Origin: Psammoneis japonica
Lineage: Eukaryota
Direction: 5' to 3'
Length of the DNA: 22,054 bases
Assembly (NCBI GenBank): GCA_008632985.1
Contig: QPGO01000287.1
Coordinates: 62,001 to 84,054, forward strand
Positions 2,767-22,053 of the stretch are shown in pieces; the first letter of the stretch is position 1; each line of letters starts with the position of its first letter. Position numbers and translations under genes: made by a program. The notes below the pieces were generated by a model. The model searched no databases and was not told the origin of the DNA. It saw only the letters and a list, made by a program, of their open reading frames with translations.

Positions 2767-3581
2767 GATGCACTCAGCATGTGAATTTGGAGAGCCACTC
2801 ACAAACTCATCAAATGTGAGGAAGAAGAAGGAATGCACACACTCTTGGGTGCAACAACAGTGAAACAGCAGATGTGTGCCACCAGCACCACTGATGCACT
2901 GTTTGCTGTGCACAACAGGAGCTGATCTCCATTCAAAAGAAATGGAAAGGAAGAGGGAGAAATGTGCGGCCCTCTTGCTGAGTGCAAAGGCAGCAAGAAG
3001 ACAGCAGAGTCAACACCACATGCCATTGATGCCACCAGATAACACCAGTGATCCACTGTTGAGGACAGTTGGTGCCAAGTGTCGGTGTGCTCAACAGTGA
3101 TCTTGTGCACTTGGAAATGAAGGCCTCCACACTGGTTTTGGCACCGCCTGCCGGTTGTTGAGTACATGATCGTTTCAGACATGGACGCATGTGCTCTTGG
3201 CTTCGTTTAATTCGAGCGATCCATCTAATGATCCGAAAATGTCCCATGTGCTTCGGAGATCTTTTTGCTTTGCCGGCCCATGAACATGACGCTTTGATTT
3301 TGACCCACACCCCTCGCCGATCCACTGCACTCTAATACCCCAGCTCCTTTGTTGTCGTTGTGTATCTCGATAGGTAAGATGTGATGGAGAGAGTGGCTCG
3401 CAACTGCAACGAGAAACAAGAAATTGATCATGGAAGCTTATGGCGCTTGCTTCGTGTGGATTGTTCGTGGTGGATTGCCGTCTTTACTTTTCCACGTGTG
3501 ATTATTCGGCGACTCTCACACTGAAGTTCGATTTGTTACCCCGCTACATACGTACAGGTCATTCTCGAAACACAGTTCATC

Positions 3582-5372
3582 ATGGTGGAAACACAAAACC
3601 GCAAGCGCACCCGAAGTCAAGACGAAGATTATCACGAGCCTTCTGATAGCAATGCTCTCGTGGAACACGCGGAAGAAGCATTGGAAACGGCCAAGCAAGT
3701 CCGCGCTCACGAGAACAAGCAACGTCGGCTCGAGTCATTTGCGCGCAATCATCCTCCGTTGGAGACGCTGGATGGCTTAGTCTTGGAAAGGATCTTTCTC
3801 TACCTTGACTCTCCACGCGATGTGCAGTCCTTTGCGTTTTGTGCCAAGTACCTGCGAGCCTGTCTGACACCCGAGATTATCATTCGCTCGGCCGTCTTTG
3901 CGGGAGGCACGTCCCGTATTGCCATTAGTTCCATTATCCGCTGCGTTAGGAACAGGTCGATTCATATTCCTTCGACTCCTCGACTGCATCGATTGGTGAA
4001 TGCTACGAAATGTGAGAGAGGCGACCAGTGTTTTGCGTACAACCATCAGACAAAGCAGCCAAAGCGCATTGCTGACAGCGGGATGCGGTCATTTGGGCTT
4101 GCAGTTTGCGATGACTGCGTCAATAATACTTCTCATGCGGCAACCGTTTACCATAGACGGCTCGACAACGACAGCGACCCCTTTCGTTTTTTATCGGAGC
4201 ACTACGTGGAGGCAGTGATAGGCCATAAAGCGGGGCCAGTCATCTCAAACCTCCAAGTGAAGCAAGCTCAAGCCACGTATCCTCGTGATCAAGTCCAACA
4301 AGCTCTCAACGATTTTTTTGAGTCGGTTGACGAGGCAGCGGACGTACAAGATGCGGAGCGAGGCAAGAACTCTGTCTTTGACATTGCAGAAAGTCAGTAC
4401 GATGCATTTGAGAAATCCAAGGAGGATTTACTTCTGCAAAAGCAGCAAAAACGAGCAGCCTTGCGAATTGAGAAGCGACGGGCCAGCGCAGAGTCCATCT
4501 ACCAGAGACTCCAGTCTCTCGTAAAAGGACATGACCGCGAGGACCTCATTCTTGACTGCGCTTGGACGTACGATGGGTATTGCCACTTCAGTAATGCTGT
4601 CGTGGACGGAGAGTTAGGGGAGCTGCTTCGGGCTCCCACCCAAACGACTTTCAAAAAGCTCACGGCTGCGGTGGACCGTGTGAAGGAAGCCATGGACTTG
4701 CTAGCTTCTCACGGTTTTTTCTCTGGTCCCAATTTTCTGCCTTTTCTTTCTGGCGCAACCCATCAAAAGGTATTGCGTCAATTCTGTTTCTCTCTGTACA
4801 AGTACCGCGAGGTAAACGCTTTGTTAGGGCTGAACACGCGCACGTTGAGTGTATACCGCCTAGCGCTTGAACGCCTCAGGGGAGGAAAGCCTTTCGATGC
4901 ATTGCTTGTCCTCCTTGGGCCACGTAGTGTTGGTATGGCTCTCGCAACAAGTATTCGTGGCACAGATCTTGTGCCTAAAAGTAAGATCAGGATTCTTGTG
5001 CAGAAGGTATGGGACCGCAAGGTCCGTGCCCTGGTAGACATCGATTCGGAAACCAAGTACCGCGTAAAGCATCGGGAATGCTTGCGAGAGTGCAGAACAC
5101 TTCGTTTGGCCATCATCCATTATCTCGAGGATCCACTCACAGTGGAGTTTGTCAACCAAACGGATCCTCCTCCTCATCGTCCTCACCAACGATTCACTAG
5201 GCAGGATGCGGTGAACAAGATTTTTTCTCTCGAAGGAAACACCCTCCGACATTTGCAGTCTCGCAACTTTGCCGCGTTGCGACGCCTTCATCGTGCCGAT
5301 TTTTTGGGACCCAACTTTGTCCAACTCCCTGCTGGCGTGTTTCTTAGTCGAAGACCATCATCATTTCGATAG
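3582..5372 (+). CDS. 596-aa hypothetical protein with N-terminal F-box-like motif
   Basis: Long uninterrupted ORF with normal codon and dinucleotide use. PLETLDGLVLERIFLYLDSPRDVQSFAFCAKYLR is F-box-like. Cys cluster CERGDQC...VCDDC and a predicted coiled coil (EKSKEDLLLQKQQKRAALRIEKRR). Confidence 0.85.
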   Translation: MVETQNRKRTRSQDEDYHEPSDSNALVEHAEEALETAKQVRAHENKQRRLESFARNHPPLETLDGLVLERIFLYLDSPRDVQSFAFCAKYLRACLTPEIIIRSAVFAGGTSRIAISSIIRCVRNRSIHIPSTPRLHRLVNATKCERGDQCFAYNHQTKQPKRIADSGMRSFGLAVCDDCVNNTSHAATVYHRRLDNDSDPFRFLSEHYVEAVIGHKAGPVISNLQVKQAQATYPRDQVQQALNDFFESVDEAADVQDAERGKNSVFDIAESQYDAFEKSKEDLLLQKQQKRAALRIEKRRASAESIYQRLQSLVKGHDREDLILDCAWTYDGYCHFSNAVVDGELGELLRAPTQTTFKKLTAAVDRVKEAMDLLASHGFFSGPNFLPFLSGATHQKVLRQFCFSLYKYREVNALLGLNTRTLSVYRLALERLRGGKPFDALLVLLGPRSVGMALATSIRGTDLVPKSKIRILVQKVWDRKVRALVDIDSETKYRVKHRECLRECRTLRLAIIHYLEDPLTVEFVNQTDPPPHRPHQRFTRQDAVNKIFSLEGNTLRHLQSRNFAALRRLHRADFLGPNFVQLPAGVFLSRRPSSFR

Positions 5373-5607
5373 TGGCATATTCTTCGTGAGATTCGCCACC
5401 GTCCAACACCACTTCCAGCGATTTCTTTCGTGATAGTGTTTGTTTCTATCAAAGGCGTGCATGTCAAGCGGTGATTTCTTTCAGGGCTAAGCATCTGTGA
5501 ATTTTCAACTTCTCGTTTCAAGCAACAGTACCGTCGACTTTTTGTCGCAAGTGTGAGCATCAGAATGATTTATTCGTGAATTATAATCTGACATTGTTAC
5601 CAGTGCG

Positions 5608-5889
5608 GCAGTCTATCATAGCTTGTTGTTGCGTTTTCTACACTCCATGTCATTACACAATTTGCCAACATTGTGCTTTCCTCCTTTCCGTCAGCGCCTC
5701 CTCAAAGAGATGACTGCATTGCTGGGCACATCCACCAATAAAGTAGACTTTGTGGCTCCCTCAGAACTTAGATTCTCACCCTGGGTGGGAGGGTCTTTGC
5801 TGGGGTCTCTATCTGATTTCCAAAACTTTTGTATTGCACAAGAAGAGTGCAAGCAGTTGGGCCCCACCATTGTTCATCACAAATGTTTT
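5608..5889 (+). pseudogene. C-terminal fragment of an actin-like gene
   Basis: AVYHSLL...FANIVLS (frameshift) QRLLKEMTALLGTSTNKVDFVAPSELRFSPWVGGSLLGSLSDFQNFCIAQEECKQLGPTIVHHKCF aligns with the actin C-terminus (NIVLSGG...[46 protein letters not shown]). No N-terminal part upstream. Confidence 0.85.
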
Positions 5890-5972
5890 TTTCTAGTAGA
5901 GTCTTGCTTGTCCGCAAGTCGATCCGATCCTAGCTGGTACAGCAGTACACGTGCAGTAGCTAGCTAGAAGTA

Positions 5973-6243
5973 AAAAACCCAATCCTAATTTAAAGTGCTA
6001 TTACACCTTTGCCCAGCAACACCGGCGCCGGCTAACCCACACCTCCAGTACACTTGACTTGCAAGTGCGGCAGAAGTGGATGCGATTAGCCTGAAACGGC
6101 GCCTCCCGGAGGAGACGCCCGACGGAAATAACTGGCAATGGTGCGTGTGCCACGACGCGCCAGTTTCCTGGCCTCCTTCAAACTTTCTTTTAATCGGGGA
6201 CGAACCATAGCGATCCAATTCTGAATTCGAACCGTTGTGAACG
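5973..6243 (-). mobile_element. 5'-truncated non-LTR retrotransposon (LINE) 3' end with 11-bp target-site duplication
   Basis: Direct repeat agctagaagta at 5962-5972 and 6244-6254 flanks a 271-bp segment that is absent from the paralogous site (~17100-17125). The minus strand encodes IQNWIAMVRPRLKESLKEARKLARRGTRTIASYF, resembling from memory the C-terminus of diatom non-LTR element ORFs, followed by a short 3' UTR. Confidence 0.7.
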
Positions 6244-6596
6244 AGCTAGAAGTAGCTAGACGAATTGCCAATGTCTATTCGTCAAACGTTCGGGCCCGGA
6301 GAGTCTCGATTATCCACCCCAGTAGGATCCCAAGAGCACAATAGAAGATGACGGGTTGAGTCCCTGGTAGTGGCAAGGCGGCGAGACAATTGAATGAATT
6401 GAAACACGAATCATACATGACTAATTTTTATCCCTCCCAACTGTTCTGACAAACTCAGTGCACAAACCCCTTGTAGTTCGCTGCTGTGTGGGTCCAAGAC
6501 CGGCCAATTTTCGTCCAATCACCCCAAAGGACCTTGAGAAGAATTCATGGAATATCTCAAAATATAAAATGGCTCTTCTTCTTACAGATTCAGTTC

Positions 6597-7694
6597 TCAA
6601 AACAAGGCTTCCCATTCATTGTACGTAGTTGGGTCCTCCAACTTGTTCGTTGCTTCCTCGCAGAGCTTCTTGCTTCGTTTGTGGGCTTCTACGTGCTTTG
6701 GTGGCAATCCGACTGGCGCTACTAGTCCCGCGAACTCCGTAGTGAAGAGAACACGACCACCAGTTGCTTTCATAGCATTGATAATAGTATCCCGGCTGTA
6801 TCCTTCGCCCAACCGGAACAAGAGCAACTTCTTGCTCGCCACCGACATGACATCTCCCAGCTTTGCAGGGGGGATCCGCACACGAGTTACGGAGAGTTCT
6901 CGCAAATGAAGACATCCTTGGAGAATGGCTCGGACCCCCTTTTCAGTAGCTTTCTCGTGGAAATCGAGATTGAGGGCTTGCAGATTCGGGCATTCTCGTG
7001 CTATCGTAGCAAATGCTTCATCCGTCAGACAGGAGCCACGAACTGTGAGCTCGCCAAACGTACCCTCCAAATTAAGGCATCGGAGCTCAGGCATCCCCGG
7101 TGATGAAAAAAGGAGGACAACGTCTTCGTCCACGAAATAGTGATCTTGAATCTCTAACTTGACCAACTTCTTCAAATTTGACACTTCCAACGCCAAGGCG
7201 TCGCACGCAGCGCGTGGCCAAGGGCCATGATCAGACGCATTTCCAATCACAACATAATTAAGCACCAGCTCTTTGAGGTTTTCCAAAGACTTCAAAATGA
7301 CTGTCAGTTCCTCGACTTTGGCAAATGCCACATTTGCGAAGACTAGCTTTTCCAGAGTCTGGATGCGGGCCAGGGGACGCAAGGCCTTTCCATTGTTGAT
7401 CATCTTTGACACTTGCGCAAAGCAGCAATCCTCGGCCTCCATCTCGAAAGAGATCAGTTCCTCTTGGCCTCGCAAAAACTTCTCAAGAGCACCGGGGCTT
7501 AACTTGGGCGAGGGGGTCCTAGCCTCAATTCCTTCCATGTGGTCCATCGAGCTGCTGGCACCCAAGGTCAACTCCTGAGGGAAAAACATCTTCATGTGCT
7601 TGATGTTTTTCACGTTGATGCTGTTGAGGATGCTGTCAAGATTGTCTCCATCATTGCGTGGGTCGAGAGTGAGCGTGTTGCCTAAGAGTCCCAT
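6597..7694 (-). CDS. 365-aa leucine-rich repeat (RNI-like) protein
   Basis: Intact ORF with LRR units LENLKELVL, LKKLVKLEI, ELRCLNL, LTDEAFATIARECPNLQALNL, ILQGCLHLRELSV (cysteine-containing LRR type). Confidence 0.9.
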   Translation of the reverse strand: MGLLGNTLTLDPRNDGDNLDSILNSINVKNIKHMKMFFPQELTLGASSSMDHMEGIEARTPSPKLSPGALEKFLRGQEELISFEMEAEDCCFAQVSKMINNGKALRPLARIQTLEKLVFANVAFAKVEELTVILKSLENLKELVLNYVVIGNASDHGPWPRAACDALALEVSNLKKLVKLEIQDHYFVDEDVVLLFSSPGMPELRCLNLEGTFGELTVRGSCLTDEAFATIARECPNLQALNLDFHEKATEKGVRAILQGCLHLRELSVTRVRIPPAKLGDVMSVASKKLLLFRLGEGYSRDTIINAMKATGGRVLFTTEFAGLVAPVGLPPKHVEAHKRSKKLCEEATNKLEDPTTYNEWEALF

Positions 7695-7859
7695 GCTGGT
7701 TGCAGTTTGTTACGTAGGGGATCGGATGAGAGGATCAAGATCGTTCTGATAAAAATGCGATCTTCAATCCAAATCTTCGCGACGCTCCATGCTAGCTACG
7801 TGCCGCACGTGCGTGCGTGCGTGCACTCCCAACTGGGCGGTGCCAAGCCAAAAGCTGCA

Positions 7860-9480
7860 GCTGGGAATGGAGAGATGCCTCTCCATGCAGCCGCAGCCTG
7901 TGGCTGTGCAAATGTTGTCTCGGCTTTGCTGGAGAAAGTTGAATGTTTGCCTGAAGAAGACCTTGCTGCCTTGGATGAACACGGTGATGTGCCGTTGCAC
8001 GCTGCATTGCGAATGAAAACTTTGAGTGTCTTGAGCTGTTTGTGAAGAAGCTCCCGCCAGAAGTTTTTTTGAGTGACAAAACAGTGAACAAACAAAGGGA
8101 CAACATCTTGGCAGCGTTGGTGCGATGCACTGATGTATGCTGTGATTGTGAAAATTCTGAAGCCCGTGACTCAGGATCATTCAGAATGTTGAAAAAGTTG
8201 CTCGGCATCATCAAAAAGAATCACCTGCACAGTCCACACTTGCTCACAAGAGTGAAATCAAGGAACATGCCATGGCAGTTGCAGCAGCATCTGGTCATTT
8301 TTTAAGCAAAGGAGATTTCAAAGCTGCAGTTTTGTGCAGAGCGGAGTGTCACCAATGTGTGCATTGAAAAGAAGGGGGGTCTTCCAAGGACCCCTCTGGA
8401 CCTGGCAAAGGAGACAAAGGCCATGTTGGAGAGAAACGCTGCCAAAAAAGAGTTCTTTGAATGTGGTGTTGTTGTTCCTGAGTTTTGGGAGACTTGTCAT
8501 TTTTCAAACTGGCTTGAGTGAGGCACAAATCTGACTGTGGATCTGCTTGAGAAGTTGGGGCAGGTGAAAATGACATCTCTTGCCACTTCCATGTGCCACG
8601 CTTGGCCAGGTGCATGCGCAAGTCAGAAACAAAGGCTCAGCGTTGCTGCGGAAGATTTCAAAAACCGACACACCTCCATCAGGAACAGCAGAGGCACTCC
8701 CTCAACTCAATTTCACCAAAAAGGACGTGTGAAAAGGGTGACAGAGGTTGGTCAAGCAATTCAACAGCAGGTCAGAAATGTGGTCTGCAACCCTGGTCCC
8801 ATCCCTCAGGTGAAAGCAGCACTCATTGGGAATCCAAAAGATCCTTGCATTTGGACTTCTTTTGATTTGTGCTGCAGGCAGTGTGGGCTGTTCGTAGATG
8901 GCTTCACACCAATGAACACAGTCGTCTGTGTGCACCTTGGACTTGTGCACCGTGAGAGCAAATTTGGTGCATGCGATCCTGACCCTGAGTGTGCTGTCCA
9001 GATGGAGACATGCAACGAATGCATCAAGTCTGATGGGGGAAAGCCACATGCAGATGCACACATGCTTGATGCAGAGAAAGTGTGCAATGAAGGTTCGCTG
9101 ATGATGCCAGGTTCAATGTCATGGGAGAGGACAAAATTCTTTGAACCAAAAATGCAGATTTTCTCAAGGTCATCATTGACAGGTGGCCGCATGTCTTCAT
9201 TTTGACAGTCAAGGACACAAATCCTTCAGAAGGGGGGTCAGAAGAGCTTCTGATTGACTGTGGGTTTCTTTGCTGGGAGAAACATGAAAATGCAAAGTTG
9301 AGGAAGTGTCTGGAAATTTTTGGAAGCCAGACGCATGGAGTTGGAAGCAGAGAACACTCATCTGCGAACATTGAAACAGAGTTAGAACATCAGGATGTGG
9401 CCACTGTCTCCTCTGTTGAAGCTGTTGGCAGTCTCTTCACTGCTGTGTGTAATGGAAGCGTTCACTTTTCTTCTTGTTGC
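7860..9480 (+). pseudogene. Decayed ankyrin-repeat gene with an unidentified C-terminal region
   Basis: GEMPLHAAAACGCANVVSALL and DEHGDVPLHAALR (cf. ankyrin GxTPLHxAAxxGxxxVVxxLL), then a PLDLAKE-like motif near 8392-8415. Coding-like frames with shifts continue to ~9480. The 3' extent is uncertain. Confidence 0.65.
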
Positions 9481-9596
9481 TGAACAATTTAGGTTGAAGA
9501 AAAAAGCAAACACCTTTCCATGCGTCTGTTGCCATGTTTGAGCAAAGCATGGATGTCAAAGCATTGGCCAAGCATGTGCACCCAAGTGTTGCACTG

Positions 9597-9696
<100 letters not shown>

Positions 9697-9769
9697 AGAG
9701 AAGTGGCTGAACCAACTTGGCAGCAAACATCTTCTTAACTCCGCTGTGTCCAGAAACAAATGTCAGTTT

Positions 9770-10060
9770 CTTTGGTGCTGCACTGTGTCAACACTGTGGC
9801 AAAACCAACAGGAGACTGTCCCACACTCTCAGCAGTCTCATGCTGTCCTGTGCATGTGGCAGGATGACAATGCACCAATGACCCCCACTGAAAACAACTG
9901 GATGTTGTTCTTGTGCCTTGCACTGTGTTCCGGGCAGCAGCATGCTTGATGCTGTCCTTGAGCACAGGCTTGAAGCTTGCCAGCCAACTGTGCAAGTGGT
10001 GAGCAGAGATTGCTTCACATCTGTCCATCAGATGAATTTGATGCTTTGCCATGTTGTTGT
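9770..10060 (-). mobile_element. Decayed LINE 3' end, distantly related to 5973-6243
   Basis: Minus-strand LHSWLASFKPVLKDSIKHAAARNTVQGTRTTSSCF parallels IQNWIAMVRPRLKESLKEARKLARRGTRTIASYF. The downstream UTRs share ctg..g.gtgtggg..ag and ..agcac motifs. No TSD identified. Confidence 0.55.
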
Positions 10061-10879
10061 CATCTCATCAATTCACTGATTGGGTTGTTTGATGATCGTG
10101 CACATGCACAGCCATGCTGCACTTGTTCCGATGACCAAAAATGTGGTCAATCATGCCCCAGCTGCATTTCTTCTTACAGCAGCCACCAAAGTGAGACCAG
10201 AGTCCAGACAGTCATGGGAAGATGCCTCATTTGGGCACCACTCCAGCACCATGAGAAATGCCCACAACAATTGTGTCTTCAACAGCTTTTCTCTTTTTTG
10301 AGTTGGCAACTTGGGGGCAACATGAGGGTGTTGCTCACTCAGACAAAGCACTTCATTGCAGCAATCAGTGGTCTCAAGGGCAGTGTGGGCCCATGCTTTG
10401 CCTGAGTCCATGGAGCAGGAGCAAACAAATGTGGTTAAGTTGTCACCTTTTGTTTCAGCATGCTGCACTGTTTTTTCTGAGTGACTGTTTTGGAGGCATT
10501 CAGTGACTCAAAGGATCTTGTGGGAAATGCTTGCCAAAGCTGCTTGTCAGTGTGTGGGGGAGATGGTCCAGTCTGCCACCTCAACCTTGGCTGAGATGTT
10601 TCTTTGGTGCCCTGCATGGCTGGGTTCTGTGTGTCAGTGAAGAGAGGTCATTCCTGCACATGCAGCAGATTGCTCTGATGCTGTGAGCCAATTTCCATTC
10701 AATGCAAGTTTGCGCCTCTGCTTCAATGCAAAACATCAAATTGCTCCTTTCCATTTGTCATTGTTGATGCTGGCAGTGTGAGCATTTTGCATGTGAGCTC
10801 TTCTGCTCTGTTGATGAAGTTGTTTTCATTGTCACTCTTTGTGCTTTTGTTGATCACATCTGTTGATGCTTGCTCCAAT

Positions 10880-11170
10880 GCCAGCTGCCCCATGAACGGA
10901 GTGGTTTTTTTTAGTGCAACGATGGCAACAAGATGCCCCCTGACAAATGACACTCACTCAAAGTTGGCACCATGATTCTGGTGAAGCAAATTGTCATTGA
11001 TGCAAGCTGCTCTGTCACTGGCATCAGCTGACTTGTGCCACCACCTGAGCCCCATCCAGAAACCAGAAACACTGTCAAAAATTTGATGTCCACCATCCAT
11101 GATTGCTGCATTTTGTGTCACAACACACAACACCCACTTGGACTCCTGCCAATGCCAATGCCAGTGCCAC
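10880..11170 (-). pseudogene. Possible decayed SET-domain fragment
   Basis: DRAACINDN...NHGANFE*VSFVRGHLVAIVALKK...GQL weakly resembles SET ARFINH...N...V.IVA.RDI..GEEL after undoing Y->C/H and R->stop changes. Weak evidence. Confidence 0.25.
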
Positions 11171-14100
11171 CCTCTGGACAAACCCCATCTTCCAGCATCC
11201 ACTGCCCTCACCACTCCCCAGAAGGCTGCCACCACCTCACTTTGCTGCAAAGCCCCCTGGGCATAAAAACTCTGCTGTCAAATTTGCACCCCTGCCCGTG
11301 CTGCTGCTCTGTTGGCAACCACTTCACCAGTGTTCTCTCACTCTTACTCTGGGTGTCCCATGAATGACAAGAGTGAGCCATTGACCATTGTTCAAACTGC
11401 TGGGCAAGCTTAAAAACCAGTTGGCTGTGACAAAGCTGGCATTGCACTTGACAGAGCATCTCATGTCAGACACATTGTGTGCAAGGCAATTCACAGTGCA
11501 GCCTCCTGTTTCTTGACATCTCTCAAGTTGTGGAGTGCAGCAGGCTTCTGTTGGCATGCAATTGGCAAATGGCTTCTTTGTGCATGCCTGGGTTGATGGC
11601 TCACAAAGCACATTTGGATTCCATTTTTTTGTCTTTTGCTGCGACTTTGCAAATGCTGCAAGCCTCCCATTGTGTGTGTTGGGGGGGGGGGGGCTCCCCC
11701 AGTGACTTTTCTTGATGAATTGGACTGGCACCATTCTGGTTGGTTGCTCAACTTTTTATTGGCTTGGAGATGCATTTGAGATGTCCTCCTGATTCTCCTG
11801 ATCAGGAAGGCATCCTCTCCAGGGCTGTTGGCTGGTCATTGTCTGTGATTTGACATTTCTTCAGTTTTGCACCAGGTTGCCACCTTGGTTGGTTCCATGT
11901 GTGATGTTCAGTGTCTGCCTCCAGTGCACTGCATGTTCTTTTTTACAGCCACAGCTCTCACCAGTGCTTTTTTTGCACTGGAAGATCTGCAACCCTGTTT
12001 TTGCCAGGCTTCTGAAGCTTGCAGACCAGCTTCAGTTCATCAGGTTTTGAGCAGCAGTGCCACAGCATTGTGAATTCACTGGCCCATTTTCAGCAACTGT
12101 CAGTGTGACCTCAGTTGAAAAGATGAGCATTGGCAGAGTGATCTGGAGCATGAAGAAAACCCATGTGTGGTGGGCTGCAAGTCATTTGGAGGGTCAAGAA
12201 AAAGGTTGTTGTGCACCTCTAAAATCCAGCTAAATTCCTCTGGGTGCTTTGACCTGCACCATGAGCTGGAGAGTCTTCCAACAGCTGTCAATGGCTTTTT
12301 GTCACAAGGGTCAGCATCAGAATCTTTTGTTCATGAAGCACAAATGACTGTGATCTTAAGTTGCTGTCAGTGCTGCTGTCTGTTGCTGCTTGTTGTTTTT
12401 AACCCACAACATCATTGCACAGTGATTTTGTCTGGAGCACAGGTCCTTGTGATGATGTTTGAGATGACAGGGCACACATTTTTTCTTTCTGCCTGTCACC
12501 TCCCTGTGTGGTGTGGTGAGCAGAAGTGGCCCCATGCCCGTGGCATCCATGGGGCTGCTGAGAGCAGCAAAGCCCCCACAGCAAAGTGAAGGACAGACAG
12601 CTCAGTTGTGGGACACAAAATGCTTGGGTGTCACATCCAGGCAGGCATGATGCATGAAACCAGAAAGAGGCACTGCGCCCCAACATTTGTTCACAGTGCA
12701 CAACATGATGTGTGTGACACATGTCACGATGTGCCAGCATTGTTTGCATGGGTGTGAAGCACTGGGATTTGATGCCTGCTGGTTTTTGTTGGCATGAAAT
12801 TTAGCAAAATGAGTGCCAGAGCCAACAAACAATGTTGTGTCACTCAACCCTTGGCCAGGGTTGTTCTTTTGTGCCCAAGTCACTCAGCATCAGAGCTTGC
12901 TCAGCCTTGGTGTGTCACAAGTCAAAATGCTCATGTCCACTGTTCATGAGCTCTTGTCAACACAAGTCCTCATTCTGGCTGTGCCCAAGCATTGGCAAGC
13001 CCAAAACCAAAATGATGCTGCAATGGAGCCAGCACAATGCTGAGACATGTGCAAGCATGCAATGGAAAATGTGCTGATTCCACACAGCATCAGTGTGCTT
13101 TCCAAGCATGATCTTTTTCTCTTTTGCATTGCTCAGTTGTCATGCAGCTCAGGTTTGACAGAAGTGCCAATGACGGCAAAAAATTTGGTGCACTGGAGCC
13201 AGTGCAATGTGCCAGGTGCACAAGACACACTCATTCCATGCGCAGTGTGCAGCACTGCTCCGTGCTTTCCAACCATGCCCCCTTTTTTGTTTCAGCAGGT
13301 GAATTTTTTTCTGCCTTTTGTTTTTGACTTTTGAGTTCTTTGCAAGGCAAGGCCATGACAAGAGAAGTGTGCCACTCCAGCATGCTGCTCTGCTCTCCAA
13401 GCATTTGGGTGCTGAGTGTGCTTCAGCAAAGAACAGCTTGAAAAGTGTTTTCAAAGAGTGCATGCAACAACACTGGTGTTGCTCTTGACAGTGCTTTTGT
13501 GATCAGCAAGTTGTGGCACAAGGGATGTGGCAGCCACAGTTGTCTCAGAGTTGCCACTTCTTCTCTCTTGCCTGGTTTGCCACTCCACTCACCATGTTGA
13601 AGTGCACAGCAATCAAAGCTCTGGTGGCAGAGGATTGCAAACATGATGAAGGTGGCAACTCTGCTTTGTCATGCTGAAGGTTTGTGGTGTGTGAGGCCTT
13701 TTGATGCACAGGTGGGGTGGTTTCAGCAAAGAATCAGGCTTCCCCATGCTGATGCTCCACAGTGTGTTGCTGTGCACACTCTGCATGGGTGCCAGCCTGG
13801 TGCGCTGGTGGCCCACACATGTGTGGAGGTTTTGGGCCACATGTTGGGATTGTGCTGGACATCATGCACAACATGTGGTGTGGGGTGAACTCTGGGGGAA
13901 AGTGGGCCCCTTGTGTGGCAGCACTTCATGTTGAAAGATCTGGGAATGCCATGATCCATGATGCAAGAGCCAACAATGAACAAGAGATGACACCCCTGCA
14001 GGTGTGCAGCACTGCATGTCACACAGAACCCTGCCATGCAAAGCCCTGACAACTGAGGATCTCTCAAGCTGTCAACCAAGAAAAAGGGTGCTCATGCTGC

Positions 14101-16014
14101 ATCTCCATCTGCTGTGACAACAGCTGCAGCCCATGACAGCAATGCAAACAAGCATTGAGTCATTGCTTGCACATCAAAAACCAAGCCAAAGACAAGCCAA
14201 CAAATGTGGTGGTGGCAGTGGGCAATCAAGGTCAAGACAGCCCTTGCTCTTCAGCCAGTTGTTGACCATCTGTGCCACCAGCAATGCCAGTCAACAAGAA
14301 GGGCTGAAGCATTGTTGTGTCACTTGATGATGCAGTGCAAAATCTGAAAAATGTGGTTGACAGGCCAAGTGGTGCAACCTTCATTTGCATGCATGTGGCT
14401 GCCGGTTGAGTCAGCCCTTGTCATTTGCCTTGCCACTCATGACAATGACTTTGTCAAAGTGAAGTTTGGCACCTTGGTTGACAAATGGCCAGCAGCAAAG
14501 ATTTACCCTTGAGGTCTGGGAAGCACAGATGTCTGCAGAAAGACAGGGCAAGAAGACAGTTGCAGCAGATGAAGCACATTTGCTGTTTCTGCACCAAGTG
14601 TGGTGGTTGCATTGCTTGCCATTGAGGGTTAGAGACAAAGAGGAAAATGTGCTAAAAGTTCTCGTCTAATGGCTTCCAGCATTGCTTCCAACTCCAAAAC
14701 AGCACTTCCAGAAATCCAAAACAAGGCTGTGTGTGGCATTCTCTGCTTCTGGACATGGGTTGTGTCTCTGGTGGTGGACATGAGAAATGCCAGAAGACCC
14801 ATTTGCCTTGCTGTTGAGTCAAGCAGAAATGAGAGTCTGAAGAGGCAGCTGACAAGGCAGGCTGAGAGAGACACACACATTTCTCAGACATCATCATGGG
14901 CTTGTGTTTGTGCTGCTGCCCTGCTGTGGGTGTGCTTTCATGGACAGAGGTTCAATCAAATGAGAAGATTGCATCATGTTTTCTGCAAAAGCAAATTGTG
15001 CTTTTGCAGCTGCTGGCATGTGCTTCTTGTGTGCAAGCTTTATGGCAGAAACATGTTGCATGGTCTGCTGGTGGCTGAGCAAGACCCCAACTTGGACTTG
15101 TGACAACAAAGGCAGCACAAAAGGGCAGACTGCTGCCCCAATGTTTGGGAGCGCACACAGTGGGCCACAAAGGAGCAAGCAGCACCTTCTTCATTTAGAG
15201 TCCAAGCAACCAGGGCAAAGTCAAAGCTGTGGAAGGCAGGGCTGGTGTGGTGTGTTGTTGGAGCTTCATGGTTTTGTGGACCAAATCTGCATTAGTCTGA
15301 CCTCTCAGGAACTCACCAAATGGACTGCAAATGCATGCTTCATGCTGTTGCTGGCACCATTGGTTTGCCTCTGTGTCAACCTGACACAGAAGCTAAAAAG
15401 TGAGCACAAGACAATGTTCTTTGGAGTTTGTCAATGCAAACCCTCCATGTCATTGAAGAACATCAGGGATCTTTCATTGCAACATTGTCATTCTTGCTTT
15501 TGTGTCACAGTCCATTGCCAAATCAAAGGAAATGGGTTGGTCTCTCACAAGAGGGGGAAAGGCACAGAAGGCAAAGAAATGGGCATTTGTGTGGTTGTTG
15601 CTTGCCGCTTTCTTGTTGTGTTGATCAGTGAGTTTGGAGCCAAAAGCCTGTGTGTGCACAGCAGGGCACAGCTGTCCAGCTGGGGCTTTGGATTTTGCAG
15701 GCCCCACTGAGGCAGAAGGTGGTGTGGCTGCACAGCACAGGTGGTGCTGGGTCACAAAGAGGAGGCTGGCTTCTGTGCTGCAGAGGCAGGTTTGAAGAGT
15801 GCTTCAGGTCAGCAAAGAGAGCACAGGAGCAAGAAGTGGCAAAGGCCAAGGGACACTGGAAGAAGATTCAGCAGGGTGTCCAGGGATGCTCAAGGGGCAA
15901 GCAATGGCAGAACAATGGTGGCAAAAGCTCTAAAAAAGCAGTTGATGGGCAAAGAAATCAAGGGTGCCAGTCCAAGATGATCAACAACAAATGATGGAAA
16001 AGTGCAAATCAAGG

Positions 16015-17050
16015 TGTCATTGAGGTGGTCAGCTGTCAAAGTGCTGCACTGTGTCTCATGGTTTGGGTGATCATGGGTGACCCAGCCCCCATCAATTTGC
16101 CCAGTGCTGACTGTTGCTCTGGCAAAACATGGAGTCACTGTTCACTCATTGGGAGTGAGGAAATGGACAGATCTGAAGACATGCTTTTTGCACAGAGCTG
16201 CAGATGAATCTCAATGATCAACCCACATCCCTTGTCATCCAGGGGGCTGTTTCAGTGCCATTCCCAGCACCAAGTTAAGAGTGGATGATGCAGCTCATGT
16301 TAGAGACCTTTGGACCCCAGGTGTTCCACATCACCCTCCAGACAGCACTGTCTCTCTTTGCTTTGGTCTGCATGGCAGGATGAGCTGTCAGTCCAGAGAG
16401 GGTGTTGCTCACTGTGCCCCCATTTGCCAATGCTGTGTGCCCTCTTTTTTCCATGCCTTGGTTTGGCTTGATGTGGTGGGTCACAACATGACTCCAGTTG
16501 TTTGGCCCAGAGGAGGGTGACCCAATTTTCCCAATTGAAGCAATGAGCTCAAGGGCATCCACACCACAAATGACAACCATTGCAGTGCGGCTGCTTGCTT
16601 TGAGGGCAAAAGAAAAAGAAGAGATTGACTGCATTGGAATGACCTGCTGAGCTTGCCAAAATGGCAGCTGTCCTCTTAGAAGGGAGTGTTTTTGCTGGAC
16701 AGGGAGATCCTCTTCCAACCTTGCCTGGCAGGATTGCTGTGAAATGCATGGGGTTGCAGACTCCCTGTTTCAGCACATTCTGATTTGTGATGACCATCAG
16801 AACAACAACCCATGCTCCTGTTTGCATCAGGGCCTGTCCAAAGAGGCATGACTGTGATGGACATTGTGGCACCCCAGAGTGCAATTGTGGCACCCCCAGA
16901 ATGCAATTGTGGCACCCCCAGAATGCAGATTCTCACACTCTGGGTGGGAGGGTCTTTGTTGGGGTCTCCAGCTGATTTTCAAAGCTTTTGGGCTGCAAGA
17001 AGAATGCCAACAGTTGGGTGCTGCCACCATGTGGTCCATCACAAATTTTT
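16015..17050 (+). pseudogene. Near full-length actin-like pseudogene
   Basis: Collinear actin motifs: I*RHAFCTELQ (IWHHTFYNELR); EWMMQLMLETFGPQVFHITLQTALSLFA ([28 protein letters not shown]); SREGVAHCAPICQCC...HALVWLDVVGHNMT (SGDGVSHTVPIYEGY...HAILRLDLAGRDLT); EILFQP; IVAPPECRFS; WVGGSLLGS; VVHHKFF. Confidence 0.88.
16863..16927. repeat. Three tandem copies of a 21-22-bp unit inside the actin pseudogene
   Basis: attgtggcaccccagagtgca (16863-16883), attgtggcacccccagaatgca (16884-16905 and 16906-16927). Confidence 0.93.
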
Positions 17051-18510
17051 CCACAGTGGATTCTTTTGCTTGATGAAGTAGATTCAACACCAACTGACAG
17101 CCCACACACAGCACAGAGATGCAAAATTGCCAATGCATGTTCATCAAATGTGTTCGAGCCAGCCAATTGAGTTTCAATTGTCCACCCCAGCAAGAGCCCA
17201 AGAGCACAGCAGAAAAGGTCTTGCTGTTTGAGTCCCTGGTGGAGCCAAGGTGGTGAGACAATTGACCAAATTGAAACACAAATCATGAATGACTGGCTTG
17301 TCATCCCTGTCAACTGTTCTGACAAACCCGTGCCAACCCCTTGCAGTTTGCTACACCCAAAGCAACTTGAGAAGAACCCATGAGTGTCTCCAAATGCAAG
17401 GTGGCTCTTCTTCTTGCAGATTCAGTTCTCAAAACAAGGCTTCCCATTCATTGTGCCCAGTTGGGTCCTCCAACTTTTTTGTTGCTTCCTCACAGAGCTT
17501 CTTGCTTTGTTTGTGGGCTTCTGCATGCTCTGGTGGCAATCAGACTCACTCCATCAGACCCTCAAATTTTGCAATGAAGAGGACACAACCACCAGCTGCT
17601 TTCACAGCATTGGTGACAGCATCCCAGCTGCATCCTCTGCCACCCAATCAGAACAAAAGCACATTCTTGCTTGCCAACCACATGACATCTCCCAGCTTTG
17701 TTGCTGCACACAAGTGACAGAGAGCACTGCAAATGAGTGCATCCTTGGAGAATGGCTTGAACCCCCTTTTCAGTGGCTTTCTCATGGAAATCAAGATTGA
17801 TTGAGGGCTTGCAGATTCAGGCATTCTTGTGCCATTGCAGCAAATGCTTCATCTGTCAGGTGGGAGTTACAAACTGTGAGAGGTCACCAAGTGCACCCTC
17901 CAAATCAAGGCATCAGAGCTCAGGCATCTCCCATGAAATTGTGATCTTGAATCTCTGACTTGACCAACTTTGTCAAATTTGACATTCCCAGTGCCAAGGC
18001 ATTGCATGCAGCACAGGGCCAAGGGTCATCACCAGACACATGATTGCCAATCACAAATTGATTGAGCACCAGCTCATTGACATGTTTCCTGGAGACTTCA
18101 AAACAGCTGTCAGTTCCTCAAGTCTGGGAAATGTCACATTTACAAAGACTGGCTTTTCAAGAGTCTGGGTGTGGGCCAGTGTGCGCAAGGCCTTTCTGTG
18201 TTAATCATCTTTGACAGCTGTGCAAAGCAGCAGTCTTCAGCCTCCATCTTGAAAGAGATCAGTTCTTTTTGACCTTGCAATGACTTCTCAAGAGTGCCAG
18301 GACTCAACTCAAATGAGGGGTTTCCTGCTGTCAATTCCTTCTGTGCAGGCCACAGGGAGGCTGCCACCCAAGACCAACTTCTGAGGGAAAAACATCTTCA
18401 TGTTCTTGATGCTTTCACGTTGATCATTGATGCTGTCAAGGATGTTGTCAAGAAGATTGTTTTCATCATCATGTGGGTTGAGAGTCAGCATGATGCTCAA
18501 GAGCCCCATG
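16900..18510. repeat. Direct segmental duplicate of ~5750-7695 (actin 3' end, intergenic spacer, LRR gene)
   Basis: Collinear similarity, e.g. 6571-6710 vs 17403-17542 aligns without gaps with 12 mismatches in 140 bp. Spacer anchors tccaccccag, ccaagagcaca, gagtccctggt, caactgttctgacaaac are shared. Confidence 0.95.
17429..18509 (-). pseudogene. Hypermutated copy of the LRR gene at 6597-7694
   Basis: Homologous from ATG (18509) to stop (17429): MGLLSIMLTLNPHDDENNLL...IKNMKMFFPQKL, ELSPGTLEKSLQGQKELISFKMEAEDCCFAQLSKMIN. Frameshifts and a ~30-bp deletion near 17930. Confidence 0.95.
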
Positions 18511-20766
18511 ATGTGTGTGCAACAAATGGAGTGCAAATGGGGGCCTGACATTCACCTGCAAGGAAGATTTGACACTGCTGGGAGATGACCATGGCCAATC
18601 TAACACATGCTGCTCCAATGCATGCAGCTGGCCAGCCATGCTGCATTGTTTGTTTTTTGCTTTGTGATGGAACCACTCTGCACACAAATGTCACCCTCCA
18701 TTGTGTCTCCCCTCCAGCCTATCATGACAAAAGCTGCTTAGAAGAAACTGGGACAAACCATGTTGGCAGTTTCAAAAAGACAGTGCTGAAGAAATGAGTG
18801 CTGCCAATGACTGCACAGCTGGAACAAAGTGACAAAATGGCATCATCCTCAATCTGCTCATGCATGGTCATTTGTCTCTGGCACTCTTGGTGGCGTGGCT
18901 CCAAGGGCACAGGAGCCACCAGTGCCATCTTCCACACAAGGGGTGGTGGTGCACATGTGTGCCAACATCAACACTGCAACCACTTCTTCAGCCAACTCTT
19001 TGGCATGAACAAAGGAGGGTTTCATGTTGTTGGGGATTTCCTTTCAATGACTCAACAACAAAGGAGGTGCTGGCAGCTTCCACATGATGTGAAGCTCATG
19101 CCCCACAAGAAAGCAGCCATTTTGACTTGCTGCTTGGCATTGACCAGCTGACATGCAGGTCAACCATGCTGGGATCAACTGCCAGTCTGCAGCATCTGGT
19201 GCAGGCAGAGCATCTTGAGCTGTGCATCTGGCATCAATGAGGGAAGGAGCACATGCTCCACTCATCATGTGCAGACTTTGGGTGGAAGGTTGAGAATGGC
19301 CGCCCCCAACAATTTGATTTTCATTGTTCACTTTTTTGCAGCAGCATTTCCACAAACAGGCTTTTTTGTGGTCATGGTTGTCAGAGATGTTGCTCTGCAG
19401 CATTCATGAAGGGGGCTTCAACTGGCCTGGTTTGGCATCCATGGGTTTTTGTGGTTTTCTTTGCCTGACACTTGGCCACCTTTTTTGCTCCAGGCATCTT
19501 GCACCAAGTTGCCGGCATGGTGACTGGTTGGAAAGGCTTCCAGCACAAGAGATGAGGTGCTGTGGGCAGTGCCTGCTGTCAACTCAACCCCTGCACACCA
19601 TTGAGTTCTCCCTCAAAATGAAAGCAGACGAGCTTGGCTTGTTGTTGGGTTTCTCGCTCAGGAAAATTGCACACGTGGAAGAGCTGAAAAGGAGTCAGTC
19701 AAAACTGCCACCCTTGCTGCCAAATTGCACAGTGCACAGCTTGCACACACCAGATGTAGAGGTGGCCCCCATGTGGCTGTTTTTTTGTGACTCCCAGACA
19801 CCAGGGCAGTGGCCAGAGCAGCAACAACTCCCGCAGACAATGCAGTGAGCTGGCACAACATCAAGCTGTTCATCAACAGTGTCACAGATGTGGCCACCTT
19901 CTTTTTGCAGGCCAGCCAGCTTCTTTTCTGTGCAGCTGAGTCACAAGCCATTGGAGTGCAGGTGCTGCAATGCAGCAAATGCGTGTGAAGATGAGCTGGT
20001 GCTGCAGAGCCCAGCCTGCAAAAAACACCTCCATTTGCTTGGTGCATGACAATCAACCCTTGCTGACAAAACAGCAGAGCATGCATGTCTGCAGGGGGGA
20101 TTGTCAGTCACATGCAGTGGCCACAGAGGCTTCTGGGCCATGCCAGCCAACAACTCCATGAGAAGAGGAGGCCGGTGCTGGTGTGTGGCTCCCACATCTC
20201 TTCAAGGGGCTGGCGCAACAACCAAAGGACTCATTTTGCTTTCTCTGACACCTCTTTGTGTGCCGGTTTCTGAGTGGCCTTGGCAAGCTTGGTCAGGAGC
20301 AGGGGACACTGAAAAAGGCCTCTGGCACAGAGACCAGAGGCAGCAGCAGACAAGGGGGTCAACAACTCAGGGGTGGCAGTGGTCTCCACCAGCAGCATGA
20401 CAACACGATGCCCAGGCTGGCACATGCATCGTCCACCCTGGAATTGATTTGGTTGAAAAGCCTTGTGGCACTGCATGTTTTGCTGGTGCTCTCACCATAA
20501 AGGCTCCGCGTTTCTGGGAATCTCATTGGCTGCAGGAAGAAACAAAAATTAATGAAATCATTGTGCAAACATCACCTCCACCGCAATCGTTTTGCAAAAT
20601 CTCTTACCGGTAGAGTAGCTCGTGACACGCACTCGTGACTGAGGAGCATGAGGCATGAGGGAAATAACACAAACGACGATCGAAAGCTATGACAATAATA
20701 AGGAGAGAGGCGAAAGCGTACGCCGCACATCTCACTCTTCGCCTGTAGTCAACTGGGTTGCCTGCC

Positions 20767-21465
20767 ATGAGAGTCCCCTCTTTGCTGCTTTTTCTTGCCT
20801 GGGTGGTGTCACACGCGGATTCCTTGTCGTTGAGAGCCGTCCAGAAACAGCGTGTTGTAGGATTTCTTGCTCACGCCGGTGCTGCAGTGTTTGCGGGATC
20901 TGAAGTGCTGGAGGATGTTCGAGAAATCGGCCACGGACATGGTCTTCTTTTGCTCGGATGCTCCAAGATTTGTCGTGAGGTGAACCTCCTGAGAGAGTCG
21001 GTACAAGAAGAATCTGAAGAGCTGAAGGAACAGGCATCTAGGAAAAAGTGGGTGGCACGAGCCTTGGATCCATTTGTCAGCGGTTGGCGAATGTTTTTCT
21101 CAAGAAAAACGTCAGCTCTACTTGCCACGGCAGCGCTAGGTGCAGCCTTTGTGGAAGTTGTTCAGGATTCTCTCCCAGGTGGTCACCATGGTACTGTTTG
21201 CCTGGCGCTCTCTGAATTGTTGGAACTTTTGACCGAGTCAGGACTTGTAAAGGGCCGCATGTGGTCGGAACTGATAGCGAACCAAGTTTTGCGCCTTGGT
21301 CTTGCAGTGGGAGCCATAATCTTGGCATTGATGGAAACAGCAAGATCCACACAACAAGCAATGGGCGCTCACCATGCCGTCCTTGTAATTGCATTGAGCA
21401 AGACATTGCGATGTATTGGATTTCTGCTTGACGACGAGCCGGAAAACGAAAAGAAAGTCGCATAA
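20767..21465 (+). CDS. 232-aa membrane protein with signal peptide and three His-motif repeats
   Basis: First ATG at 20767. N-terminal MRVPSLLLFLAWVVSHADS is signal-like. Hydrophobic helices flank GHGHG, GGHHG and GAHHA. Normal composition. Confidence 0.85.
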   Translation: MRVPSLLLFLAWVVSHADSLSLRAVQKQRVVGFLAHAGAAVFAGSEVLEDVREIGHGHGLLLLGCSKICREVNLLRESVQEESEELKEQASRKKWVARALDPFVSGWRMFFSRKTSALLATAALGAAFVEVVQDSLPGGHHGTVCLALSELLELLTESGLVKGRMWSELIANQVLRLGLAVGAIILALMETARSTQQAMGAHHAVLVIALSKTLRCIGFLLDDEPENEKKVA

Positions 21466-21786
21466 GTAGATACCATGTAGGTAGACTGAAGAAGGTGTGT
21501 ATGTGTTGTACCTGATGCATGAGATACGGTAGAACAACTCGAGTTCTATCATCGTTCCGTGAAGTTAGCTGCCGGAATATAAGTACAGTATTACCAACCG
21601 CTCGTAAATGCCACGGGGACAGAAAGCTAGTTGCATAGTATGTGTTAGAACGTCAGGTTCGCGAGGCGACAAGTAAATGATAACGTGCATTTTTACAGCT
21701 TCGCGTTCTTGTAACGAAACAACGGACGTGGGGCCGACACCATTATTAACCAAAGTGACATTTATGTCAAGCGAGCTTCCTTCATG

Positions 21787-22053
21787 CTAAGGATTCGGCT
21801 CCTCTACCGCCTTTTCAGCCTCCTCACTTTCTTTTTCCGGCACATAGGTTCCCTTGACAACCTCCGTCGTAACAGCCGTAGTTCCGTCCGGTTGAATTGA
21901 TTGAGTGTATGTGACTGTCTGGGTTTCGGGTGGTCCTCGTTCTGGGCGAACCGATGGTTTGATGACAAAGCAGCAGAGTGCGGCCATGAACCAAATAACA
22001 ACAGAAGCAATGCTTGTATTATATCCCCAGTCACGTTCACATTCATCGGAACG
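21787..22053 (-). CDS. 3' end of a membrane protein gene (continues beyond the window)
   Basis: The frame is open to the window edge: RSDECERDWGYNTSIASVVIWFMAALCCFVIKP (final TM helix), then a Thr/Glu-rich tail ending in TAG at 21787-21789. Confidence 0.75.
   Translation of the reverse strand, partial: RSDECERDWGYNTSIASVVIWFMAALCCFVIKPSVRPERGPPETQTVTYTQSIQPDGTTAVTTEVVKGTYVPEKESEEAEKAVEEPNP

Follow-up and report, generated by a model that had tools for sequence, protein, structure and literature searches.

Decay of an Actin Gene Within a Regional, Strand-Symmetric Domain of CpG and TpA Loss to TpG and CpA

To our knowledge, context-specific hypermutation of silenced DNA is described for cytosine only, in the form of CpG decay and RIP. 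In the decay of 5-methylcytosine (5mC) at CpG, which is found in vertebrates, plants, fungi, and diatoms, CG is converted strand-symmetrically to TG or CA in silenced DNA that lies beside genes of normal CpG content, and the affected regions have graded shores. In RIP, as it operates in Neurospora and other fungi, near-saturating and context-specific transitions kill duplicated genes within sharp domains; CpA is turned into TpA, the DNA is enriched in TA/AT, and both copies of the duplicate are hit. Hypermutation at TCG, a related case, is reported for basidiomycetes (PMC3318451). We know of no eukaryotic modification that is specific for TpA. Modified thymine occurs in eukaryotes as 5hmU in dinoflagellates and as base J in kinetoplastids, where it is described as being enriched over repeats and silent DNA (PMC11071213; PMC11572971), and thymine oxidation of this type would offer a route to T>C changes. 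The genome-wide map of 5hmU presented in PMC11071213 has no sequence preference and no specificity for TpA. The papers on 5hmU and base J that were consulted yielded no mutational footprint of the CG/TA kind from thymine oxidation, and full-text searches of an open-access collection yielded no description of a joint regional loss of CG and TA to TG and CA.

In this report, we describe such a loss in one 22-kb window of one genome (the window being the whole stretch of DNA that was analyzed, 22,054 nucleotides), of which 14.7 of 22 kb are depleted of CG and TA. The main domain, defined by composition as depleted in CG and TA and enriched in TG and CA, extends approximately from 8200 to 20500 and contains an actin pseudogene. 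A second depleted domain, also defined by composition, is found at 1–2400 and runs off the window start. The 14.7 kb of depleted blocks contain 74 CG (observed/expected ratio, o/e, of 0.09), 53 TA (0.05), 1754 TG (1.82), and 1671 CA (1.91), whereas the o/e values for the 6.2 kb of normal blocks (3051–7800 and beyond 20600) are 0.93, 0.53, 1.14, and 1.21 for CG, TA, TG, and CA, respectively. The gain of TG and CA in the depleted blocks equals the loss of CG and TA. The YR (pyrimidine–purine) steps were determined to be 241.6 per kb in the depleted blocks versus 236.9 per kb in the normal blocks, with GC contents of 0.486 and 0.494, respectively. The process is near saturation, and it leaves the GC content and the YR total unchanged. 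Approximately nine tenths of the CpG and TpA sites have been converted to TpG or CpA by single transitions, on either strand, across at least 12 kb of single-copy nuclear DNA. The changes are specific to CpG and TpA, the two YR steps that are self-complementary. An adjacent block of ~5 kb, which contains paralogs of the genes found in the domain, has retained a normal composition.

Inside the block, CG and TA are both near saturation and their rates of loss are therefore not comparable there. At either edge of the main domain, the zone free of TA extends further out than the one free of CG, and the losses of CG and TA look spatially separable. In the left shore (7800–9500), TA is nearly gone (6 TA) and CG is partly lost (35 CG); in the right shore (19500–20500), there are 11 CG versus 2 TA. 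This slightly greater reach of the TpA arm suggests that two activities are at work, linked to each other yet separable.

None of the 110 open reading frames (ORFs) of at least 70 amino acids from the depleted blocks matched a Pfam family at or above the curated cut-off, and the Rfam scan of the window gave no match. The dinoflagellate spliced-leader motif, with up to 3 mismatches allowed, had 0 matches in the window. A compound microsatellite, (TC)17 followed by (CA)31.5, is located at 9599–9694 in the main depleted domain, and the contigs assembled from a public sequencing run break at this point.

The changes can be read site by site in two paralogous segments, one at 5668–7698 in the normal block and the other at approximately 16850–18513 in the depleted domain. 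Each is composed of the 3′ part of an actin gene followed by a leucine-rich-repeat-like (LRR-like) gene on the other strand, and the two were aligned over 1353 columns with 81.7% identity. Of the 63 CG of the normal copy, 52 read as TG (25) or CA (27) in its depleted counterpart, and 3 are kept. The 37 TA of the normal copy correspond to 35 TG or CA (16 TG and 19 CA), and 0 are kept. The TG and CA of the normal copy were found to be largely retained, at 69 of 87 and 93 of 107 sites, respectively. Inspection by eye of the 52 CG and 35 TA sites revealed no flank preference for the strand that was changed. Besides these transitions, frameshifts, a 32-bp deletion, a 22-bp triplication, and substitutions of other kinds (about 12%) are found in the depleted copies.

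The near-equal division between TG and CA bears on whether the changes could have been made in RNA, by ADAR-like editing of A to I after U together with C to U editing, followed by reverse transcription and insertion. The replacement of TA by TG is indeed an A>G change, and ADAR enzymes prefer a 5′ U. Nevertheless, this route is extremely improbable, since the strand symmetry of the counts given above, at CG and at TA alike, largely refutes it. Moreover, the two opposite-strand genes and the spacer between them are in the same order as in the normal copy, which identifies the segment as a duplicate of DNA, and the conversion of AA to AG is not raised (7/102).

The LRR-like gene of the normal block is an intact ORF of 370 codons on the minus strand (6597–7709), and the region of this ORF contains 65 CG and 30 TA in 1.2 kb. 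Its decayed paralog, also on the minus strand (17429–18509), is interrupted by 10 indels that break the frame and by 4 TGA stops in frame; two of these stops are positioned at codons that are CGA/CGG in the intact copy. Between the two genes there are 107 nonsynonymous versus 44 synonymous codon differences. In a word-based homolog search with the intact ORF, 0 of 3599 candidates passed, and no related loci were found in either viral_contigs or metagenome_contigs. A further duplicate pair, 1262–1553 and 1783–2079, is situated wholly in depleted block 1 and is 80% identical. Here, 10 of the 21 adjacent double differences are TG in one copy versus CA in the other. This discordance indicates that an ancestral CG or TA was resolved independently in each copy after the duplication.

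What remains at 16.1 to 17.05 kb is the dead copy of an actin gene that was divergent and had no introns. The part that could be aligned with confidence (16108–17054, plus strand) extends from approximately residue 64 of actin to the C-terminal HHKFF, and was determined by dynamic programming (DP) to be interrupted by 11 frameshifts and 3 in-frame stops. Relative to conventional actin (PF00022), the pseudogene is collinear from about residue 64 to the C-terminus, with the segments LETF, ALSLFA, and WVGGSLL being kept; it differs in being dead and in being derived from a divergent actin. A possible N-terminal remnant at 16015–16107 (plus strand) is ambiguous in its placement. The sequence GDPAP at 16076–16090 fits GDDAP (residues 23–27) and GDEAQ (residues 55–59) of actin equally badly, and no position for residues 1–60 was found upstream of 16108 (the best local score being 22). 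The first-pass annotation had assigned 16015–17050 to actin; approximately the first 90 nt of this range were not confidently placed, and the remainder is upheld.

The actin relatives were retrieved by an exhaustive, profile-free search that was seeded with the normal-composition actin fragment of the same window, and a consensus was built from the 13 full actin domains found among the 150 best matches. This consensus is of the animal type, and the ancestral gene was a divergent actin. Using frameshift-aware DP, the consensus was aligned to 15700–17120 with a score of 194, and actin residues 54–360 were placed on 16073–17003. In 14 control runs, with the protein reversed, with the DNA read from the opposite strand, or with either strand of six other depleted segments, the scores were 30–55. 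The match to actin that had been proposed from the translated peptides is thereby supported. With the 11 frameshifts and 3 stops distributed over residues 54–360, an open full-length actin frame is absent. A tblastn comparison of a retrieved actin domain with the pseudogene gave two collinear HSPs (16138–16362 and 16389–17003) with a joint E-value of 2.1e-9. In searches with single frames, the actin threshold of Pfam was not reached. The best frame of the pseudogene (16794–17081) scored 13.4 bits against Pfam Actin (PF00022; cut-off of 27), three other frames of the pseudogene had no Pfam match, and phmmer with the frame at 16218–16520 found no actin among the PDB chains. A 22-bp unit is present 3.0 times at 16863–16927 (plus strand; 95% matches) and duplicates the VAPPEC segment, which accounts for the two occurrences of PPEC in the pseudogene. 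Because the units still match at 95%, the triplication is younger than most of the decay.

The paralog of the actin C-terminus in the normal block (5668–5892, plus strand) covers residues 303–375 and is truncated on its 5′ side. It was recognized by Pfam Actin with 51.3 bits (cut-off of 27) and by the actins of the PDB with an E-value of 3e-17. Over 74 residues, it shares only 47% identity with actin, and its best relatives are taxonomically scattered (Anaeramoeba, plants, and fish), without a signal for any one taxon. In a word-based homolog search with this fragment, 0 of 35 candidates passed.

The conservation of actin makes it possible to polarize the change with an outgroup, with no reliance on the paralog inside the window. 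The first-pass annotation had made this argument from ten peptide strings, all of which were located on the plus strand within 16186–17045: FCTELQ at 16186–16203, EWM at 16279–16287, FHI at 16324–16332, PICQCC at 16419–16436, WLD at 16464–16472, PPEC at 16893–16904 and again at 16915–16926, EEC at 16999–17007, and HHK at 17037–17045. In these strings, conserved Tyr residues were said to have become Cys or His, and Arg residues to have become Gln, Trp, His, or Cys. Seven of the ten residue changes stand, and three do not hold in the form proposed. For the change of EY to EC, the normal-composition paralog also has EEC (GAA GAG TGC) at 5842–5850. The same is true for the change of HRK to HHK, where the normal paralog has HHK (CAT CAC AAA) at 5875–5883 and solved actins also end in HHK. 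For the change of ERM to EWM, the consensus at this position is EKM, and the other relatives have K in 11/15 and R in 2/15. A Cys or His already present in the closest intact homolog, which the first-pass annotation had named as evidence against its reading, was encountered at the EEC and HHK sites; this sole intact close homolog spans just the last ~73 codons of actin. Four columns that had not been quoted, R62, R183, R210, and Y294, were added by the full codon tally.

In this tally, 294 aligned codons of the pseudogene were compared with the actin consensus, and 91 were found to be identical. Tyr has been lost from all 13 consensus Tyr columns, 5 of which (positions 91, 133, 166, 169, and 294) are now TGY or CAY, compared with 13 of the 270 columns whose consensus is other than Y, C, or H (Fisher p = 5.5e-4). 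Of the 14 consensus Arg columns, 6 (positions 62, 95, 177, 183, 210, and 335) are TGN or CAN versus 28/255 (p = 0.004); 2 of the 14 survive as AGA, a codon without CG. At both kinds of column, the pattern is in excess of chance. Among the other 137 retrieved relatives, where they cover the position, the Tyr columns are conserved in 17/19 (Y133), 23/26 (Y166), and 16/26 (Y169), and the Arg columns in 12/13 (R95), 20/26 (R177), 20/26 (R183), and 133/136 (R335). The first-pass annotation had also stated that a loss of Tyr codons no greater than that of other codons would speak against it; Tyr codons were in fact lost more often: the residue is retained in 2/27 of the Tyr and Arg columns versus 16/35 of the C, H, Q, W, and M columns, whose codons require TG or CA (p = 8e-4).

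The same polarity was obtained when the TG and CA sites of the pseudogene were reverted. Of the 396 TG or CA sites, 31 regain the consensus residue through one transition, a number reached by none of the 366 pairings obtained by sliding the consensus along the alignment (null mean of 13.7, standard deviation of 3.5, maximum of 28). Transitions at the 486 other sites restore 20 residues, which is the level expected by chance (null of 19.9). When the alignment is re-optimized with one change permitted per codon, every score is inflated, and the excess over 13 control runs specific to each scheme was used for this reason. The excess was determined to be 158 with no change, 237 with back-conversion of TG/CA, 169 with transitions elsewhere, and 158 with transversions at the TG/CA sites. 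Only the back-conversion of TG/CA, as had been anticipated, lifts the re-optimized score above its controls. A cruder site test, in which a transition was counted if it raised the BLOSUM score, gave no significant difference (65/396 TG/CA sites versus 70/486 others). Back-conversion explains just 31 of the 203 mismatched codons, since the ancestral gene was a divergent actin, as indicated by the 47% identity of the normal fragment. The Tyr and Arg columns, the restoration test, and the score excess agree, and the earlier proposal that TA and CG are ancestral, with TG and CA being derived, is supported by this comparison of sequences without recourse to the internal duplicate.

It could be argued that no regional process is needed, and that a neutral mutational spectrum erodes CG and TA across the entire genome while the "normal" blocks are either constrained by coding or consist of young insertions. 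The normal block does contain two long intact ORFs and at least two high-copy repeats, and as much as 14.7 of the 22 kb is depleted. This explanation is quite improbable, however. The intact ORFs show no CG depletion (block o/e of 0.93), even though their synonymous sites are exposed to mutation. Both copies have had the same time to change since the duplication (about 12% divergence at other sites), and the normal one has kept its CG and TA, including those of the noncoding 3′ flank, and the truncated and presumably useless actin fragment has also kept CG and TA. The retention of CG and TA by this fragment and by noncoding DNA of the normal block, together with the normal CG content of the intact ORFs, argues that the depletion is regional rather than the general neutral spectrum.

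Other features of the normal block and its border were noted. A 615-amino acid intronless ORF (3525–5372) has no Pfam domain, and its sole relatives are a 27% identical protein from a Logan contig and a 29% identical EukProt record from Attheya sp.; this is the only hint of an affinity, possibly with the diatoms or other stramenopiles. The protein atlas gave only low-recognition F-box leads, and no related loci were found in viral_contigs. An ORF with ankyrin repeats (7686–8305; Pfam Ank_2, E = 6e-7) starts in normal DNA and extends into the depleted domain, where it is read in a different frame; it resembles a gene in the course of being consumed at the domain border. High-copy repeats, with a summed contig depth of 490–1855 versus ~58 elsewhere, are found at 2055–2721 and 5390–6056, and likewise at ~5972–6244. 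The high-copy stretch at ~5972–6244 belongs to the normal copy and lacks a counterpart in the depleted one; it was probably inserted recently, with a normal content of CG and TA. A 281-nt direct repeat (2096–2376 and 2767–3047, 98% identity), the second copy of which directly follows NN at 2765–2766, seems to be an overlap that was left unresolved where scaffolds were joined, and not biology.

The reliability of the sequence was assessed with contigs assembled from the public run, which may be the source of the assembly and hence is not an independent confirmation. These contigs, with lengths of up to 7.8 kb, contain 0.98 of the sampled words of the window. Both borders of the main domain are spanned at an even depth of 55–62, by record 6 (6593–9590) and by record 8 (17425–22049), and thus the depleted domain is not an assembly chimera. 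There are 9 small indels between the window and the run contigs, which suggest a long-read assembly with residual errors and would be compatible with a technical origin of the signal, with modified CG and TA being systematically misread during base calling or consensus building. Such an artefact is very improbable, given that the same sequence, rich in TG and CA, is present in the accurate-read contigs. A clean resolution into either TG or CA is not what misreading of a symmetric site would produce, and neither the frameshifts, the 32-bp deletion, and the 22-bp triplication nor the ~12% of other substitutions would arise from errors in base calling.

The window and the run contigs also differ at single sites. 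Within 6593–7800, next to the domain edge, there are 7 differences, of which 5 have TA in the window and TG or CA in the run; TA bases make up 5% of this interval (p = 6e-6 for 5/7 differences on TA). Five of the seven differences are located in the LRR-like ORF; all five are nonsynonymous, and three of these five are TA changes. At 19379–19380, the window and the run read TG versus CA. These differences may be alleles, differences between strains, or residual assembly errors.

Among the known systems, RIP must be considered most closely, since a RIP-like, duplication-triggered defense would have a DNMT4/RID-type enzyme recognize a duplicated segment and mutate it premeiotically. Diatoms are described as encoding DNMT4 enzymes of no known function that cluster with the RID enzymes of fungi (PMC9998398), and a related enzyme family would thus be available if the DNA is from a diatom; a weak taxonomic pointer in this direction is the 615-amino acid ORF with its 29% identity to the protein from Attheya sp. 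In addition, the pseudogene and its neighbor are one copy of a segmental duplicate, and the duplicate pair of block 1 has been mutated independently in both copies. As in RIP, the transitions are near-saturating and context-specific, they have killed duplicated genes, and the domains are sharp. We nevertheless regard a RIP-like defense as unlikely. RIP makes TpA and lowers the GC content, whereas here TA is erased, the GC content is unchanged, and neither an excess of TpA nor an enrichment of AT was found. Mutation of both copies, with the mutations confined to the repeat, was likewise not observed for the segmental duplicate: one copy is pristine, with 63 CG and 37 TA in its aligned part, and the depleted domain is larger than the repeat, running ~8.6 kb past the duplicate. 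An RY-coded self-comparison of the window found no duplicates beyond those already known that would extend it. Finally, an enzyme acting on cytosine leaves the A:T>G:C changes unexplained.

The loss of CpG fits the decay of 5-methylcytosine. The CG o/e of 0.09 versus 0.93, the conversion of 63 CG to 25 TG and 27 CA, the position of the domain beside CpG-normal genes, and the graded shores are all as in the known systems. What differs is that TpA is lost as fully (o/e of 0.05) through A:T>G:C changes, and the GC content consequently does not fall. CpG decay by itself fails to account for the replacement of 35 of 37 TA by TG or CA with unchanged GC, and no mutation process known to us explains the TpA arm. 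A lowering of the TpA o/e as a mathematical side effect of CpG loss has been attributed to Duret and Galtier (PMC3829696). This effect was considered as a cause of the TA loss and rejected, since it cannot give 35 of 37 directly observed replacements of TA by TG or CA.

We are highly confident in the combination of a dead actin gene, the ancestral state of CG and TA, and a regional, strand-symmetric process. The mechanism that we propose for this process is based on DNA modification and is put forward tentatively, as somewhat more apt to be wrong than right. In this mechanism, the domain would be silenced and modified chromatin, CpG would be lost via deamination of 5-methylcytosine, and a second lesion directed at TpA would occur in the same domain. 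The candidates for the second lesion are a thymine that pairs wrongly with G after oxidation or some other modification, or the deamination of an adenine that follows T. Either arm would leave TG on the strand that was damaged. 5-Formyluracil causes T>C transitions. Oxidation of the thymine methyl group is described as leading to 5hmU, 5foU, and 5caU, which are found mispaired with G as substrates of glycosylases (PMC9423628). A single 5-methylpyrimidine oxidase that acts on both 5mCpG and TpA would be an attractive speculation. Taken as a whole, the explanation of an actin pseudogene within a regional, strand-symmetric domain of CG/TA to TG/CA conversion, complemented by a modification-based mechanism, is considered likely.

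A bolder proposal, which we consider possible yet doubtful, is that this locus reveals an undescribed, domain-targeted mutator or modification system that removes CpG and TpA by transitions and would amount to a GC-neutral version of RIP. The TpA arm of this system, which would be either a thymine 5-methyl oxidase or modifier or an adenine deaminase, may spread ahead of the CpG arm. This arm may still be active, as could be read from the 5 of 7 edge differences between the window and the run that fall on TA.

The destruction of TpA as thoroughly as that of CpG implies a second targeted lesion, on A:T pairs. The domain also provides a clean and GC-neutral signature for silenced domains and dead genes, in which the YR steps become TG and CA and the YR total is conserved. 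If the process is enzymatic, it points to a new TpA-directed DNA modification or deaminase in a microbial eukaryote, which would be of interest for epigenetics and for the enzymology of base editing.
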